From a virus: DNA of 64,000 bases. The notes under the pieces are model-generated. The model was not told where the DNA came from, searched no databases, and saw only the letters and a list, made by a program, of their open reading frames with translations. The position numbers and the translations under genes are program-made. This document shows, in pieces, positions 3,961 through 46,237 of this stretch. Position 1 is the stretch's first letter, and every line of letters starts with the position of its first letter. The DNA lies in the UHGV virus genome UHGV-0373904, one strand, 5' to 3'.

Positions 3961-5569
3961 ACGTCTATGTAATAGCCTCTATACAACCCTTTCCCTTTCC
4001 TTCCTAGAATCTATCCCACTAATTCGATAGAATCTATCTCATACCTTAAAAAGCAATAACTCTATAGTCTACTCTATAACCTTTTATCAAATCAACTTAA
4101 ATAAAAGCCAATAACCCCAGAAAGGGGATGGCCCATTTAAACGCTCTATAAAGCTCTATAACAGCCTTATCAACCTAACTTAAGGGATTGCATTAACCAA
4201 CCTTAAAAAGCTCTTTACAGGGCTTTATAGAGGCTTAAAAGAATCTTATAAGGTTATAAGCTTTATTATCTCGTTAGCTATCTTGTGAATATCTAAAAAG
4301 GGCTTGTTAGTGTCTTAAAAGTATGTTATAGGGGCTTAAAAGTTACTTCAAAGTTACGTAAAAGAAGCTATGAAGTTACGTAAATGCTAGCCCCCTTAAC
4401 ATTTTCTTAACAATTTCTTAACAATCCCTACATAGTTATGCTTGTTAGAGACTTGTTAGCCCCTTGTTAAATCTCTGTTAAGACCACGTAAAAGCCTTGT
4501 AAGAACCTTTGACATAGCCTTTAAAGCCCCTGTAAAGCCCTATAAAGAGGTATCTGTACAGTTGGGGTGTAATTACTAGGAAGAGGCTTAAAAGGGCTTA
4601 CAAGGAGCTATAGAGAGCTTTTAAGAGGTATGTTTAAGGAATCACTAAGAAAGGAAAGGGAACGATAAGAAAGAGATAGTGACCATGTTAATAGCTTGTT
4701 AAAAAGATTAAACACTTGTTAGAGACTTGTTAATTATCTTAACAAAATAACTCTTAAAAATTAACTTGTTAGCTCTTGTTAGTCATCTGTTAAGACTCTG
4801 TAAAGACCATGTATCGACTGTTAAGAACTTGTTACAGCCTTGTTAGTTCTGTTAAGAATCTGTTAAGACCTCTGAAGAGATGTTAAGAGATTGAGAGAGT
4901 TGTTAAGAGATTGTTAAGGATATTTTAAAATTCTGCAAAGTACTTGTAAGGGAGCTGTTAAGGGCTACCAAGCAGATATACATCTTCTACAGATATTTTT
5001 CAGTTCCTTCAAAGACCCTAAAAAATGACTTGATAGTCCTATTTTATAAAAATTTTAAAAATCTGAATAATTACCTATACAGTCTTTCTAAAATACAGGT
5101 AATAACAGGCTTATAAGATACCTTGTTAGTACCGTGTTAGACCTTGTGAGATAAGGTCTGTAAAGATATTCCTGTTAAGTTTGTTAAAACAGTCTATATA
5201 GAGGCTTAGTAATACCTAGTGAACACCTATAGAGAGTGTCATAGCTGACATAGAGATTAAGAGGTGTATAGGAGCTTCTAAGAAGGTGTAGAGAGATGGT
5301 TAAGGTGATTGTATAGGTTGTTAAGAAGGATTGTTAGAAGAGTGTTTAGAAGGGCTATTTAGAAGGGCTATACAGAGGGCTATTAAGACCACTAGATAGT
5401 TACTAAGATACTATATAGTACTATATAACTATATAGAGAGTAAGATTAAGAAGGTTGTTAAGAAGGATAGATATTTTATTCACATATGATGGTGACCCAG
5501 AGGTTGGGACAACCGATAAAATTTTATAAAAATTAAAAAGCCCCCAATTAAGGAGGCTCTTAAGATATT
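3961..5569. repeat. ORF-free 1.6-kb field of degenerate YTGTTARR / CTTAACAA repeats
   Basis: No ORF of 60 aa or more on either strand; about 30 copies of ttgttaag/ttgttaga/ctgttaag in both orientations, densest at 4395-4500 and 4715-4920; stop codons in all frames. Confidence 0.8.
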
Positions 5570-6596: not shown

Positions 6597-7014
6597 AAGC
6601 TCTCCGAATAACCCTATTAAGCATCTCTAAAGTCAGCTTTCCAGATTCTAAATGTGGCATAACAAGCTTTAAAGCTTTTTCAACATCATGCACAACATCT
6701 ATTATACCTTCTGCATAGGCTTCTACAAGGATATCTTTTACATTTTGTGATTTACCTTTTTGTGGTATCACTAGACGCATATCAAACTCATTTGCTTGAG
6801 GATGGTTCTTACCACGCCAGAAACCGTCCTTATCAAAGCTTATAAAGTTATCCTCATTAAAATTAATACCACAAACCTTAAACTTATCTAAAACTATGCA
6901 GTTGAGAGGGTAATCATCACTTGCATCATTCATTCCAAGAAACTTAACAGTAGCTATATACCTCTGTGTCTTTGCATCTACAACGTCAAGCTCTTTACCT
7001 ATAAGCTCTTTCAT
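6586..7014 (-). CDS. Hypothetical protein (142 aa)
   Basis: ORF; 11-nt overlap with the downstream ORF suggests translational coupling. Confidence 0.5.
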   Translation of the reverse strand: MKELIGKELDVVDAKTQRYIATVKFLGMNDASDDYPLNCIVLDKFKVCGINFNEDNFISFDKDGFWRGKNHPQANEFDMRLVIPQKGKSQNVKDILVEAYAEGIIDVVHDVEKALKLVMPHLESGKLTLEMLNRVIRRAYEN

Positions 7015-33011: not shown

Positions 33012-41036
<8,025 letters not shown>

Positions 41037-41038
41037 TA

Positions 41039-42226
41039 ATGGCGGTAGGTGAAATTCAAATTAGTGCCTTGCCTCAAGCAGCCTTACCAATTGACCTTAG
41101 TGATATCTTCCATCTTAAGCAGGGTATTGAGGATAAGAGATGTACTCTTGAGCAATTACTTGCTCCACACTCAAGCCTAAGAAATAACCCTCATGGTGTG
41201 ACTAAAACACAAATTGGTTTAGATAACGTTATTAATGCTCTTCAGTTAGTCGCTGCAAATAACTTATCAGATATTGTTAATGTAGCTGAGGCAAGAGCAA
41301 ATCTACAGATTATGTCTTCAGAAGAGGTTAATAACCTTGTTCAGCAACATATCAAGGACAAGAGTAACCCACACAATACAACTAAGGCACAGGTTGGTTT
41401 AAGTAATGTTCAGAACTGGACAACATCTAACCTGTATAATGAAGATGCAGATAAGTATGCTACAGCAAGAGCAGTAAATAACTTGTACAAGGCTGTTCAG
41501 GCTTCTTATCCAGTAGGTACTATCCATCTTTCTATGAACTCTGCAAACCCTTCTACATACTTAATTTGTGGAGGTACTTGGGAGTTGGTTTCAAAAGGTA
41601 GGGCATTGGTTGGCTATGACTCTGATACAAGGCCAGCAGGTTCTGTATTTGGTGCTTCGACTGTCACTTTGTCAGTTAATAACATGCCTCAACACTCACA
41701 CTCTGTATCTCTTAGTGGTGGTGGTCACACTCATAATGCAACTGTTTCAATTTCAGCTTTTGACTATGGGACTAAGACTACCAACTCTTTTGACTATGGA
41801 ACAAAGACTACTAACACAACTGGTAACCACAATCACGTTGGTAGTGGGTCAACAAGTGCTGCTGGTGCTCACAACCACAGATTGACCTATGAAGCGGGTG
41901 GTGGCCTATCGGAGAGACCTGCAATGGTTTGGTCTACAAGAAATGACCAATCATGGTACTCAGCAGATGCTGTCTGTGAAGTCGCTGGTTCGCACACCCA
42001 CTCTTTTAGCGTTACCACTAACACAACTGGTAACCATAATCATACGGTGGGTATTGGTGCTCATAGCCATACAGTTGGTATTGGTTCACACACACACAAT
42101 GGTACTGTGGCAGTTTCTTCTTCTGAGCATACACATAGTGGAAACACTAATAGTGTTGGTGGTGGACAAGCTTTCAACATTGAGCAGCCATCATTCGTGC
42201 TGTATGTATGGCAGAGAACAGCTTAA
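41039..42226 (+). CDS. Tail fibre protein with His-rich GxHxH repeats
   Basis: N-terminal repeats NPHGVTKTQIGLDNV / NPHNTTKAQVGLSNV; C-terminal HSHSVSLSGGGHTHN, GNHNHVGSG, GAHNH, GSHTHSF, GNHNHTVGIGAHSHTVGIGSHTHNG; ends ..VLYVWQRTA. Confidence 0.7.
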   Translation: MAVGEIQISALPQAALPIDLSDIFHLKQGIEDKRCTLEQLLAPHSSLRNNPHGVTKTQIGLDNVINALQLVAANNLSDIVNVAEARANLQIMSSEEVNNLVQQHIKDKSNPHNTTKAQVGLSNVQNWTTSNLYNEDADKYATARAVNNLYKAVQASYPVGTIHLSMNSANPSTYLICGGTWELVSKGRALVGYDSDTRPAGSVFGASTVTLSVNNMPQHSHSVSLSGGGHTHNATVSISAFDYGTKTTNSFDYGTKTTNTTGNHNHVGSGSTSAAGAHNHRLTYEAGGGLSERPAMVWSTRNDQSWYSADAVCEVAGSHTHSFSVTTNTTGNHNHTVGIGAHSHTVGIGSHTHNGTVAVSSSEHTHSGNTNSVGGGQAFNIEQPSFVLYVWQRTA

Positions 42227-42235
42227 TTTCTTTAC

Positions 42236-42257
42236 AGGGGCTTTATAGCCCCTTTTA
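42236..42257 (+). terminator. Terminator-like hairpin between the two tail-fibre genes
   Basis: aggggcttt-ata-gcccct followed by tttaag. Confidence 0.45.
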
Positions 42258-42272
42258 AGAGGAAAATTTATA

Positions 42273-44654
42273 ATGGCAGATTACAAGTTGAGTGAATTAA
42301 ACTCAATCGATACAATCCGTTCAGATGACCTTCTTCATGTCAGAGTTAAAAAGAGACCTGAAATGCTGGGTGATGAAGACCGTCGAATGACCTATCAAGA
42401 TTTCTTAGCATCTTTTAAGCTTGAGAGATTTGTTCAGATTATTGGTAGTACCATGACGGGTGATTTAGGTATTGTTAAGTTACTTTATGGTGGTAAGACA
42501 GTATTTGACCCTACAGGCTCTTCTGAGATTAATATTGGGGATGTTTTAAAGACTTTTAAAATTAACGCAAACGGTCTTAAGCTAACTATTGCAGATGCTT
42601 CAAGGTCGGCAACTGTTTATCATACCCTGAATAAGCCAAGTCCTAATGAGCTTGGGATGAGAACTAATGAAGAGAATGATGCAAGATACTCAAGATTAGC
42701 TGCAAATAACATCTTTACCTTCCAACAGGTTATTCAAGCAAATGGCGAAGCTATTAGACTAAAAAATTCTTCTGAGAACTCACCGTTGTATATTAGAGGT
42801 CAGGACAGCACTGGTGCTAATAGGTGGTATGTAGGTAATGGTTCAGGGAATGATGATGTTATTATCCACAACTACAAGACAGGTTGTGAAGTGAATCTGT
42901 CTAGTGTTGCTGCTATCAGTAAAACACTTAGAATCACTGGTCAAGTCCAACCTTCTGACTTCTCTAACTTAGATGCTAGATACTTCACACAGACAGTTGC
43001 TAATCAGAGATTTGCACAGTTAGCTGCTAATAACAATTTCACTGGCACTAACACGTTTAGCAGAAACCTACTTATTATTAGTGACAGTGCTGCTTTAAGG
43101 TTGAAAAATACTGTAGCAAATGCTGCACTATACGTTAAAGCCGAAGCTAATGATGGTTCTGGTAAGTGGTATGTAGGAAATGGTGATAATACACCTGCTG
43201 TATTCATCAGCAACTATGTGTATGGTTCTTATCTTAGACTTGACAATGGTCATGTCGCAGTAAACAAGGACTTCAGAATCACTGGTCAAGTTCAACCTTC
43301 AGATTGGGCTAACATTGACTCTAGATACATCCCAGCAGCAACTTTGAGTAACCTACCTAAACTTAATGTTGCTAACACATTTGTGAATGTGCAAACTATT
43401 GTATCAAATAATGAAGGCGTAGTATTAAGAAACTTAACACAGGGACAGCCACAATATATCCGTGGTGTTGATACCCAGAATGTATCTAGGTGGTGGGTAG
43501 GTGTGGGTGGCGCAAATTCTACTGATGTGGCATTAAACAACAGCTACTCTGGGACTCAAATTACTCTTATGCCCTCAGCGATTAAGGCTAATAAGAATCT
43601 AACCATTACTGGTCAAGTACAACCTTCTGATTGGTCTAACTTAGATGCTAGATATTTCTTAAAAACAAAACTGTTAAACCAACCTTTAATGATAAGGACA
43701 ACTAATAGGCTGGATGACCCATCAGCATTCAATAAAGATTTTTCAGGGTTTGTAAGAAACAACGGTATTGAGCAGGGTCTGAAAGATTTAGCCATCCATG
43801 TAGCACATTCTGCTGGTATTGCTCATGCCAGAGGTATTGCTTTTACATATGGGTCTAAAGGTCTTGATGTCTTCACATATGCTTATGGGTCAGATGGAAC
43901 ATATGTTGGAGAGGCACAGTTGTATTCAACGGCATTTAAACCAACCCCTTCAGATATTGGTGCATACACTAAATCAGAAACTGACCAGAAGATTGCACAG
44001 GCAATTAGTGACTCTACAGACCTTAACAAAATCTATCCAGTAGGTATTGTAACATGGTTTAACAGTAATGTTGACCCTAACACAGCGTTGCCTGGGTTAA
44101 CTTGGACGTACCTGAATAATGGTGTTGGTAGAACTATCAGAATTGCAGCAGCAAACGGTTCAGATGTTGCTACAACTGGTGGTTCAGATTCTGTGACGTT
44201 AGCTGTTGGGAACTTACCATCACATACCCATAGCTTCTCTGCTACCACTTCATCTTTTGATTATGGTACGAAGGGAACTAACAGTACTGGTGGTCATTCT
44301 CACTCTGTAAGTGGTACAACAAGTGCTGCTGGCAACCACGCTCACCACTTAGGTCTGTTATTAGTTAATGGTGGTGATGCTCAGTATGGTTACACAACTG
44401 TTAGCAACAGCAAGACAAGAACTCTTGACTGGCTTGATAGAAAAGATAACAAGTTCCCTAACACTAACACAACTGGTAACCATACACACACGTGGTCTGG
44501 TACTACAAGCGGTGCTGGTGACCATTCCCACTCTGTAGGTATTGGTGCTCACACTCATACAGTTAGTGGTAACACTGGTGGTACAGGTTCTGGTTCGGCA
44601 TTCAGTGTTACTAACCAGTTCTACAAGTTAATGGCTTGGGTAAGAACTGCTTAA
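42273..44654 (+). CDS. Tail fibre protein, three internal ~110-aa repeats and His-rich GxHxH C-terminal domain
   Basis: Three repeats each containing ITGQVQPSD(F/W)(S/A)N(L/I)D(A/S)RY; C-terminal [43 protein letters not shown]; ends ..KLMAWVRTA, similar to the end of 41039..42226. Confidence 0.7.
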
Positions 44655-44733
44655 TCCCTTGTTGACTGATTGTTAAGATGGTGTTAATATTCTTTATGGG
44701 TATTCTCACCATCTTGGCTGATGAGGTGATTAA

Positions 44734-44928
44734 ATGCCTACAATCCTAGCAATTCTTCTAAAAAATCTAGGTAGCTTCTTCTGGAAACTCATTTTATCCC
44801 TTCTAAGTGAATACATGATTGAGAAAGTGTTCTTTAATCTTGCAAGATACCTTGCGAGTAAAACAGACACACCTATTGATGATGAGTTCGTAGATAACTT
44901 AGAAAAAGCTTTTAAGGGGGAGAAATAA
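44734..44928 (+). CDS. Small hydrophobic protein (64 aa); holin-like candidate
   Basis: N-terminal hydrophobic segment PTILAILLKNLGSFFWKLILSLL with charged C-terminus; sits after tail-fibre genes. Function is inference. Confidence 0.35.
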   Translation: MPTILAILLKNLGSFFWKLILSLLSEYMIEKVFFNLARYLASKTDTPIDDEFVDNLEKAFKGEK

Positions 44929-45300
44929 ATGAAGTGGCTAGAGGAAGCTTTTAAAAATAATATTGGTGCAATTGTAGTTGGTATTTTTAGTGTTATTGGG
45001 ATGTATACCACGATGCAGGTTTCAAGTGGTAAACAAGAAGTGTCTGTCACAACAAAGTTACAGCAGCTAGATAATTATTCCAAAAGTAACTATTCAGCTA
45101 TTCGTGATTTACAGTCTGACATGAGACTGATTCAGCTAGGGATGGAGAACCAGAAAGTTCAGTTAGAGAATGTTAAGGGTGAAAACGCAAAACTTACCAA
45201 AACTCTTGATAAATTCTCTGACAGTGTGAACAATCTGGCTCAATCAGTATCAGCCCTCCAAGCTATTACTGAAAAGAACACAAAGAATACTGAAAAATAA
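44929..45300 (+). CDS. Membrane-anchored coiled-coil protein (123 aa)
   Basis: N-terminal hydrophobic segment IGAIVVGIFSVIGMY followed by heptad-like polar sequence. Confidence 0.4.
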   Translation: MKWLEEAFKNNIGAIVVGIFSVIGMYTTMQVSSGKQEVSVTTKLQQLDNYSKSNYSAIRDLQSDMRLIQLGMENQKVQLENVKGENAKLTKTLDKFSDSVNNLAQSVSALQAITEKNTKNTEK

Positions 45301-45307
45301 AGTTTAA

Positions 45308-45335
45308 GGCTCCTTTTTACGGGAGCCTTTTTTTG
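45308..45335 (+). terminator. Rho-independent terminator at the end of the late operon
   Basis: ggctcc-ttttta-cgggagcc followed by ttttttt; lies between convergent + and - gene blocks. Confidence 0.8.
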
Positions 45336-45337
45336 TT

Positions 45338-46237
45338 TTATTTACCTACTGACAAAGGTGCTTCAATCTTTCCTGCATGTTGATAGTTGCTAATACCACC
45401 GATAAAGTCACTTGCAGTAAGATGTTTTAAGTCACTTAAAGTGTTAAGCTGTACACCAATCTCAAAAGTAGGTGCATGGAACTCTTCATTGTTTATCAGT
45501 TCATAAACCTGCTTCATATGGTTCTGATAAATCTGAGTATCTCCAAAGACACCTATCAAGTACCGTGGAGTGTATCCAGTCATCTTGCAAAGAACTTCTA
45601 AGATGAAGCCATAAGACGCAATGTTGAATGGAAGTCCTAAAAAGGTGTCTACAGAACGCTGATACCATTGCAAATCCACTTCACCTTCATTAGTGATATA
45701 AATCTGAAACAGAACATGACAAGGTGCTAAAGCCATTGAGTTTGCTGCAATATCTGCTGCATTCCAAGCATTAACAAGCATGTAACGGTCTGTGATATCA
45801 CCCTTCATCTTCGTTACTAAGGCCTCTAACTGGTCTACAACACAACCATTATGACCTTCGAAGTTTCTCCACTGAACCCCGTAGATTCTCCCACCTGCAT
45901 CTTCTAACCAGTCTTGCTCAGAAGAATAGTTAGAGCTTAACCAACGTTTAAAATCATCTGACCAGATAGTCCAACGTTCTCCATCATTTTCACCCCAAGT
46001 GCGATAACGGAGTTCACCAAGTTTATTCTCACCATTCAGGAACCATAAAGCTTCCCCAATGACTTGCCGTGTAAACACCTGTTTAGATGTTAAGAGTGGG
46101 AAACCAGTACGCATATCAAAACGAAACTGTGGTGGAGCAAATGCAGAGATAACATCTCCAGTTCGTGTAGTACGCAGTTCACCAACGGATAAAACATGGT
46201 TCAGGATATTTTTGTAACTTGAATCTGCTTGTGACAT
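45338..46237 (-). CDS. thyA: Thymidylate synthase (ThyA/Td family; a related pyrimidine hydroxymethylase cannot be excluded)
   Basis: MALAPCHVLFQIYI (active-site Cys region, compare LPPCH), YGVQWRNF (compare YGxQWR), GDTQIYQNH (compare GDxHxYxNH). Confidence 0.8.
   Translation of the reverse strand: MSQADSSYKNILNHVLSVGELRTTRTGDVISAFAPPQFRFDMRTGFPLLTSKQVFTRQVIGEALWFLNGENKLGELRYRTWGENDGERWTIWSDDFKRWLSSNYSSEQDWLEDAGGRIYGVQWRNFEGHNGCVVDQLEALVTKMKGDITDRYMLVNAWNAADIAANSMALAPCHVLFQIYITNEGEVDLQWYQRSVDTFLGLPFNIASYGFILEVLCKMTGYTPRYLIGVFGDTQIYQNHMKQVYELINNEEFHAPTFEIGVQLNTLSDLKHLTASDFIGGISNYQHAGKIEAPLSVGK

Follow-up and report, generated by a model that had tools for sequence, protein, structure and literature searches.

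The window, a 64,000-nucleotide stretch of a viral genome of about 88 kb, carries two complete open reading frames, one after the other on the plus strand, that encode a short tail fibre of 395 amino acids (STF; 41039..42226) and a long tail fibre of 793 amino acids (LTF; 42273..44654). The assignment of both products as tail-fibre proteins, proposed earlier from the DNA letters, is borne out by profile matches to PHROG 2097 ('tail fiber protein', E = 6.5e-138) for STF and, over the full length, to PHROG 4277 (1233 bits) for LTF, and by orthology to gp26 and gp27 of Escherichia phage JohannRWettstein (Bas63); STF is 75% identical to bas63_0026 and LTF 61% identical to bas63_0027, in both cases over the full length. 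The orthologous series extends to gp52 and gp53 of Shigella phage Sf14, gp74 and gp75 of VpaE1, and ORF76 and ORF77 of Salmonella phage Felix O1, and the whole region shows 95.6% DNA identity to the Felixounavirus Escherichia phage EF202P1. Gene order also matches that of Bas63, with upstream ORFs of 489, 285 and 100 amino acids completing the series wedge, wedge, platform, short fibre and long fibre. The 100-aa ORF (40734..41036, plus strand), which matches PHROG 4141 (function unknown), is the equivalent in position and size of bas63_0025, or Bas63 gp25, described in the Bas63 cryo-EM paper as the long-fibre platform on the baseplate. The pair is the already-described set of short and long fibres of the Felix O1 type, in a Felix O1-like E. 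coli phage. That there are two fibre sets, as the sequence-only reading had suggested, agrees with the cryo-EM of Bas63 and Sf14 (2025), in which both fibres are attached to the virion, and with mass spectrometry of VpaE1, which detected both orthologues in virions. A scan for promoters and terminators across 40600-45400 returned no more sites than shuffled sequence; of what it marked, only a stem-loop at 45306-45329, 3' of the fibre operon, is convincing.

Homology shows that each fibre consists of a genus-conserved N-terminal part docked on the baseplate, a shaft, and a receptor-binding module of the T4 gp37 type. The N-terminal baseplate-binding and shaft part of STF (residues 1-145; 41039..41473, plus strand), whose attachment to the baseplate is assigned from the cryo-EM study of Bas63, has a mean pairwise identity of 0.86-0.99 among 10 Ounavirinae homologues and contains the motif NPHxxTKxQ[IV]GLxNVxN twice, at residues 50 and 110. 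In LTF, three tandem shaft repeats (DNA repeat family D1) span residues 140-460 (42690..43652, plus strand) as units 140-236, 237-351 and 352-460. These units of 97-115 aa, each closed by a 17-residue motif, are about 34-45% identical in pairs, with z = 22-31 against shuffles in a self-alignment, which confirms the earlier description of three tandem repeats of ~110 aa in the larger protein. The Pfam family gp37_trimer (PF20744) matches LTF in three stretches, with 229.6 bits against a cut-off of 21.7, and by homology the LTF shaft includes three repeats of beta-helix type. Across the genus the linker motifs are kept while the bodies of the repeats vary.

The C-terminal module begins with a collar of the gp10/gp12/gp37 fold. 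That of STF (residues 146-217; 41474..41689, plus strand) is recognised by Pfam Gp10_C at 68.9 bits against a cut-off of 27, aligns with 2XGF, 2FKK and 5HX2, and is equivalent to domain D10 of T4 gp37 and to the C-terminal fold of gp10. The LTF collar (residues 577-649; 44001..44219, plus strand) resembles that of STF (z = 8.9), scores 22.9 bits with Gp10_C, under the same cut-off of 27, and has a conservation of 0.82-0.92 across relatives. By homology, a C-terminal strand at the far end of each protein returns to the collar. In STF this strand comprises residues 367-395 (42137..42226, plus strand), ends in FVLYVWQRTA and aligns with the T4 gp37 segment ending IAFNYIVRLA; its last bin (residues 381-395) has a conservation of 0.90. 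T4 gp37 D10 likewise takes in residues 1010-1026 (PMC6957217, the source of the T4 gp37 domain limits used here). The LTF return strand (residues 765-793; 44565..44654, plus strand) closes on a ten-residue segment ending KLMAWVRTA. The two C-terminal tails had been called near-identical, which is too strong, since VLYVWQRTA and KLMAWVRTA agree at only 5 of 9 residues; their relatedness stands, the last 29 residues being significantly similar (z = 12.5). In this arrangement, known by homology, the chain leaves the collar, runs down a needle strand to a small tip, passes back up and ends in the collar.

Between the collar and the return strand lie the histidine boxes for which the locus was originally singled out. 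STF has nine HxH motifs, seven of them GxHxH, with four on the descending needle strand (residues 218-280; 41690..41878, plus strand; motifs at 219, 230, 264 and 278) and five on the ascending strand (residues 317-366; 41987..42136, plus strand; motifs at 319, 333, 342, 351 and 364). LTF has six, five of them GxHxH, divided equally between the descending strand (residues 650-691; 44220..44345, plus strand; motifs at 651, 675 and 689) and the ascending strand (residues 735-764; 44475..44564, plus strand; motifs at 737, 751 and 760). The motif at LTF residue 689 reads HAHH. The STF descending strand also contains a 30-nt tandem duplication (41757-41815), by which FDYGTKTTNS is encoded twice. All seven G-x-H-x-H pentapeptides quoted in the sequence-only reading are present, and the counts are far above chance: whole-protein shuffles gave means of 1.4 HxH for STF and 0.46 for LTF, and the observed count was reached in none of 5000 shuffles of either protein. 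Among the other ORFs of at least 100 aa in the six frames of the 64-kb window, none has three or more HxH motifs.

The earlier comparison of this His-rich region with the metal-binding needles of fibre tips is well founded insofar as sequence homology is a guide. Searches of the PDB with phmmer aligned both STF residues 146-366 (E = 7.3e-26) and LTF residues 648-772 (E = 1.6e-21) with 2XGF, the T4 gp37 tip, whose needle binds iron. In all three proteins two HxH runs flank a central tip insert (4 + 5 in STF, 3 + 3 in LTF, 3 + 4 in T4); six of the seven T4 motifs align with HxH in both window proteins, and STF pairs with all seven and has two extra. T4 gp37 holds seven irons along the needle axis, and its iron-binding residues H929 and H931 are essential (PMC6957217). 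From this homology we infer metal binding by the STF and LTF needles. Two strands per chain would give a six-stranded needle in the trimer, and at each HxH position the three chains together would bind a single axial metal ion in octahedral coordination (iron in T4, with 7 sites), so that the motif counts predict up to nine metal sites in the short fibre and six in the long fibre. Since each HxH triplet would hold an axial ion, the histidine boxes are better regarded as putative structural rivets than as a receptor-binding surface. The Bas63 map has fibre densities too weak for side chains, and metal sites have therefore not been directly seen in any Felixounavirus fibre. The His-rich stretches might instead form a repetitive linker or a pH- or nickel-sensitive element, a reading to which the failure of structure prediction lends some room: a single-sequence AlphaFold2 monomer of STF residues 141-395 reached a pLDDT of only 34.6 and a pTM of 0.18, too poor for use. 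We nevertheless regard such a role as highly improbable, because the HxH motifs and the iron-binding motifs of 2XGF correspond one to one, with equal spacing and the same adjacent glycines, and because most of the HxH motifs are either fully invariant among relatives or conserved in at least 90%, in contrast to the variable residues in between.

The two modules have in common the collar, the HxH stem and the C-terminal return strand (37% identity, E = 5e-22), and conservation along them is uneven, at about 0.9 in the collar and C-terminus against 0.07-0.25 at the tips across 10-11 relatives. The distal tip, or head, of STF (residues 281-316; 41879..41986, plus strand) and that of LTF (residues 692-734, 43 aa; 44346..44474, plus strand) lie among the least conserved bins of their proteins; mean pairwise identity falls to 0.22-0.25 for STF residues 281-320 (20-aa bins) and to 0.07 for LTF residues 701-720, in each case across 10-11 relatives. 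Both segments correspond to the receptor-contacting tip residues 932-959 of T4 gp37, and specificity would reside in this tip, flanked by the HxH runs, with STF residues 281-316 as the probable receptor-contacting part of the short fibre. The two tips show no detectable similarity to each other (z = 0.6, with 232 of 1000 shuffles scoring as high). The earlier proposal of a shared tip on two different shafts is not supported by this comparison, as it is the scaffold that is shared and not the tip segments, and the related receptor specificity suggested by it finds no sequence support in this phage, given tips so dissimilar. With unrelated tips, the ligands of the two fibres are most likely distinct, and are probably separate parts of the LPS core, on which relatives of this phage depend; unrelated tips could still bind one LPS region.

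Two other accounts of the tips deserve consideration. Both fibres might carry essentially one receptor-binding tip on different shafts, with the same or closely related specificity and a two-stage binding to one ligand. Such an arrangement exists in the genus, as the tips of the two Felix O1 fibres are identical at 27 of 29 residues within a 270-nt block of 81% DNA identity, and it would accord with the dependence of relatives on the LPS core only and with the homology of the two C-terminal modules at large. For the present phage it is quite improbable, however, because the identity between its modules sits in the collar, the histidine boxes and the C-terminus, and the tip segments themselves align no better than z = 0.6; moreover, the distal modules of one phage's two fibres are only 22-47% identical in 10 of the 11 phages sampled. 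Somewhat less improbable, but still unlikely, is the possibility that STF serves chiefly in structure or triggering, as T4 gp10 or gp12 do, instead of determining host range, and that LTF alone decides specificity. The best Pfam match of STF is indeed the gp10 C-terminal domain, and the Bas63 authors suggest that short fibres may act in the T4 manner, after long-fibre binding. In addition, the STF tip variant of the window, found in Felixounavirus records only, hardly varies (93-100%) among 32 phage records with diverse hosts in E. coli, Shigella and Salmonella. Against this, STF has the whole gp37-type module of collar, stem and tip, and its tip is hypervariable across the genus (0.22-0.25), as expected under host selection.

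The sequence-only reading had also proposed module exchange, and exchange is evident, between the LTF gene and gp37 of T4-like phages and not between the two fibre genes of the window. A gap-free cassette of 316 nt (44248..44563, plus strand), covering the distal stem and tip of LTF and common to gp37 of some T4-like phages, shows 87.7% DNA identity to gp37 of Shigella phage SHBML-50-1, and identity drops to about 30% in the flanks. The junctions are sharp and fall in the sequences coding for FDYGTK and for a ten-residue motif at the other end. At the protein level the cassette matches gp37 at 86-90% in five genomes of Tequatrovirus size (SHBML-50-1 and the Escherichia phages sutha, BYEP01, N2 and AV122). 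Conserved motifs flanking the tip mark where the cassette is joined. A recent gene conversion between the window's own two tips was considered and rejected, since the two genes share only patches of 34-80 nt at 75-88% identity.

T4 gp37 requires the chaperones gp38 and gp57A (PMC6957217). Searches of the 64-kb window, about three quarters of the genome, with both proteins by tblastn gave nothing better than E = 0.75 and so detected a homologue of neither; folding of these fibres may differ from that in T4, or may involve an unrelated chaperone. The gp38 query matched 348 records of a phage collection by tblastn; among the ten matches listed, none is a genome of about 88 kb. Tentatively, the gp37-type distal stem and tip may be a self-contained cassette that moves between the unrelated Ounavirinae and Straboviridae by recombination in the conserved FDYGTK and VGIGAH/His-box coding motifs, and that in Felixounavirus folds without gp38, the chaperone adjacent to this cassette in T4-like phages. 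We hold this to be possible, though not probable; if it were true, the single-protein fibres of 395 and 793 aa would offer a chaperone-free chassis for swaps of T-even tips, and the broad Salmonella range of Felix O1 could reflect one tip on both fibre sets.

Overall, the region very probably encodes the two baseplate fibres, short (395 aa) and long (793 aa), of a Felix O1-like myophage (Felixounavirus). By homology each comprises an N-terminal docking part, a shaft and a T4 gp37-type module in which an HxH needle, presumably metal-bound, supports a tip unrelated to that of the other fibre and likely to determine specificity, and the long-fibre tip cassette is shared with T4-like gp37. The fibre system itself is already known. 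The GenBank entry for Felix O1 annotates ORF76 as 'Putative tail fiber protein GP37', a 2015 publication on VpaE1 reported that both C-termini are homologous to T4 gp37, and the two-fibre architecture with HxH needles comes from the 2025 cryo-EM of Sf14 and Bas63. As a discovery the locus matters little; its practical use is for predicting and engineering host range in this therapeutic and diagnostic phage group. For comparison or swapping, the tip segments STF 281-316 and LTF 692-734 are to be preferred to the conspicuous His-rich repeats, with the FDYGTK and VGIGAH motifs as natural swap junctions.

The T4 gp37 tip (2XGF; D10 and D11) shares with the window fibres the collar, the stem and the C-terminal strand, together with the GxHxH, FDYGTK and ten-residue motifs; the tips differ, however, as do the HxH counts (9 and 6 in the window fibres, 7 in gp37). 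In T4 the module forms the end of a four-protein fibre, whereas in the window it is borne by short single-protein fibres placed directly on a simple baseplate. Certain Tequatrovirus gp37 variants share the distal stem and tip cassette of the window LTF but are unrelated outside it (about 30% DNA identity), and in SHBML-50-1 gp37 is followed by a 'tail fiber assembly' gene of the gp38 type, unlike the window, which is without one. Among the closest known systems is that of Bas63, which has the same gene order, a long-fibre shaft built of repeats, and, as its authors describe, a collar, HxH needle and head in each fibre. It differs in that seven HxH motifs are reported for its short fibre against nine in the window STF, the two tip-adjacent HxH being absent from Bas63, and in that the window LTF has another, longer tip variant (43 aa), common to some T4-like phages. 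Felix O1 itself has the orthologous pair, ORF76 and ORF77, in the same order, but there the tips of the two fibres are almost identical (27 of 29 residues, with 82% identity for the distal module), whereas those of the window carry two unrelated ones.

The interval 41039-44654 contains exactly two open reading frames (ORFs), both on the plus strand and 46 nt apart, which encode a short tail fibre (STF; 41039-42226, 395 aa) and a long tail fibre (LTF; 42273-44654, 793 aa). Upstream ORFs of 139, 489, 285 and 100 aa match baseplate wedge families (Baseplate_J; PHROGs 6, 120 and 4017), and downstream two small ORFs are followed by a convergent thymidylate synthase/dihydrofolate reductase block on the opposite strand. 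The fibre region matches Escherichia phage EF202P1 at 95.6% DNA identity over its full length and has matches in 265 phage records, nearly all from Felixounavirus or other Ounavirinae, with E. coli, Salmonella, Shigella and Citrobacter as hosts; the EF202P1 identity and the Ounavirinae matches therefore place the window within a Felix O1-like myophage genome. The small ORFs directly 3′ of the fibres (44734-45300; 64 and 123 aa; PHROGs 402 and 4038, both listed as of unknown function) have, as judged by eye, hydrophobic N-termini, followed in the 123-aa product by coiled-coil-looking sequence; the latter is called 'holin' in the Sf13 and EcSzw_1 annotation, and the pair may function in lysis or, conceivably, in fibre assembly. 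A strong stem-loop at 45306-45329 (nine pairs, then a T run), terminator-like on either strand, separates the structural operon from the convergent block. Records KT184314, KT184315 and KT184316 (KhF2, KhF3 and XTG1) annotate a 'cos site' under or beside the tail-fibre match, joined in KhF2 by a 'terminator'. A 207-aa ORF at 37363-37986, the counterpart by size and position of the Felix O1 gene annotated 'baseplate spike', carries HTHH at residues 188-191, the same position as H188/H190, the di-histidine of the Bas63 tail needle protein proposed from cryo-EM work as an iron site (PMC12609058).

The C-termini of both fibres match the receptor-binding tip of T4 gp37 (PDB 2XGF; E = 7.3e-26 for STF 146-366 and E = 1.6e-21 for LTF 648-772), and STF has a further match, to the C-terminal (collar) domain of gp10. 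In T4, the needle D11 is inserted in the collar D10 (residues 811-881 and 1010-1026) and comprises a stem (882-931 and 960-1009) and a small tip (932-959), with seven iron atoms along its length; the iron-binding residues H929 and H931 and many tip-surface residues are essential (Islam et al. 2019; PMC6957217). HxH motifs in the T4 fragment also number seven, one for each iron. Mapping the T4 domain limits onto the window proteins gives, for STF and LTF respectively, a collar (146-217; 577-649), descending stem (218-280; 650-691), tip (281-316; 692-734), ascending stem (317-366; 735-764) and return strand (367-395; 765-793). All GxHxH pentapeptides quoted in the sequence-only reading are present: STF has nine HxH motifs, at residues 219, 230, 264 and 278 before the tip and 319, 333, 342, 351 and 364 after it, and LTF has six, at 651, 675 and 689 and at 737, 751 and 760. 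These counts were reached by none of 5000 whole-protein shuffles of either protein (means 1.4 for STF and 0.46 for LTF), and no other window ORF of at least 100 aa has three or more. Aligning the two fibres and T4 gp37 together pairs six of the seven T4 motifs with a motif in each fibre; STF matches all seven and adds one per strand (230 and 364), whereas LTF is without the last ascending motif. By homology to T4 gp37, we infer that both modules trimerise and bind metal. A 30-nt tandem duplication at 41757-41815 (copies 89% identical) accompanies the extra HxH sites and gives the descending needle strand two copies of FDYGTKTTNS; every enteric Ounavirinae short fibre sampled, as well as SHBML-50-1 gp37, has the doubling, so it is old.

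Three tandem repeats in LTF (residues 140-236, 237-351 and 352-460) are as originally described, with pairwise identities of about 34-45% (z = 22-31, z being the alignment score against shuffles); each closes with [17 protein letters not shown], and Pfam gp37_trimer gives three matches on LTF (229.6 bits). The following segment up to the collar (LTF 461-560; 43653-43952) is highly variable genus-wide (identity 0.22-0.32), gives way to a domain about 60 residues longer in typing phage 1 and ph2-2, and is a second exchangeable module of the long fibre. The motif NPHxxTKxQ[IV]GLxNVxN occurs twice in STF, at residues 50 and 110 (41186-41236 and 41366-41416), and STF residues from about 23 to 156 also match fibre-like proteins in large phages that are unrelated (Goslar, SPbeta-like phages, and Serratia and Ralstonia jumbo phages).

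A shared tip on two shafts, as first proposed, is borne out for the scaffold but not for the tip itself. STF 157-346 and LTF 588-764 are 37% identical (E = 5e-22), a likeness located in the collar (z = 8.9) and the strands that bear the His boxes, and in the return strand, the last 29 residues (z = 12.5); the tails VLYVWQRTA and KLMAWVRTA, called near-identical, share five of nine residues and are therefore better described as similar. The tip segments, when aligned with each other, show no similarity (z = 0.6, a score equalled or exceeded by 232 of 1000 shuffles). Across annotated phage records (13 short and 11 long fibres aligned, 10 of each profiled), N-termini, collars and C-termini average about 0.9 in pairwise identity, compared with 0.22-0.25 at STF 281-320 and 0.07 at LTF 701-720. 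The shared element is thus a scaffold, and the specificity-bearing part differs, leaving related receptor specificity unsupported for the window phage. Felix O1 is unlike the window in this respect: its two fibres share distal modules at 82% identity, their tips match at 27 of 29 residues, and a gap-free 270-nt block common to both genes (4248-4517 and 6707-6976 of the Felix O1 record, L003; 81% DNA identity) gives nearly the same tip. Going by these alignments, the related-specificity reading does hold for Felix O1. Overall, the initial observation is confirmed and its interpretation partly supported.

Module exchange likewise stands, although with a different partner. The STF and LTF genes share only patches of 34-80 nt (75-88% identity), so no recent conversion has taken place between them, whereas gp37 of five T4-like genomes (166-170 kb) contains the LTF tip at 86-90% protein identity. 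Specifically, the 316 nt of 44248-44563 align without a gap to SHBML-50-1 gp37 (Shigella phage; 87.7% DNA identity), with identity falling to about 30% on either side and junctions where FDYGTK and [10 protein letters not shown] are encoded. Judging from sequence, this block is a tip cassette common to different phage families. A gp38-type assembly gene adjoins the cassette in SHBML-50-1, whereas no gp38 or gp57A homologue was found within the 64-kb window, which is part of the genome. VpaE1 and REP10 have long-fibre distal modules that match the one in T4 itself at 91-92% identity; the STF tip variant was found in Felixounavirus records only. In the 1990s Tetart and colleagues reportedly described how T-even gp37 recombines at its conserved 'His box' motifs, and such exchange is therefore expected rather than new; its reach into Ounavirinae makes a tidy example.

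Each fibre would act as a homotrimer docked through its conserved N-terminus, with His boxes riveting the three chains round axial metal ions into a rigid needle, as T4 homology suggests, and the tip as the putative receptor-contacting part. The attachment points in Bas63 are wedge 2 for the short fibre and the gp25 platform for the long one (PMC12609058). Because relatives depend on the LPS core, the most economical guess is that STF and LTF contact different core moieties.

The two-fibre system is already known. In VpaE1, fibre proteins gp74 and gp75, with C-termini homologous to the T4 gp37 adhesin, were both detected in virions by mass spectrometry (2015; PMC4690856), and cryo-EM of Sf14 located fibres of 391 and 792 aa on the tail, for which possibly different receptors were proposed (PMC11821841). 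Cryo-EM work on Bas63 described short fibre gp26 and long fibre gp27, each with a collar, an HxH needle and a head as in T4 gp37, carrying seven and six di-histidine motifs, respectively, and reported fibre tips as highly variable across the genus (PMC12609058). For the orthologues, the refuting condition set at the outset, a single one of the two proteins belonging to the virion, therefore does not hold. Bas63 (MZ501086) has the same gene order around the two fibre genes as the window, and STF and LTF are 75% and 61% identical over their full lengths to bas63_0026 and bas63_0027.
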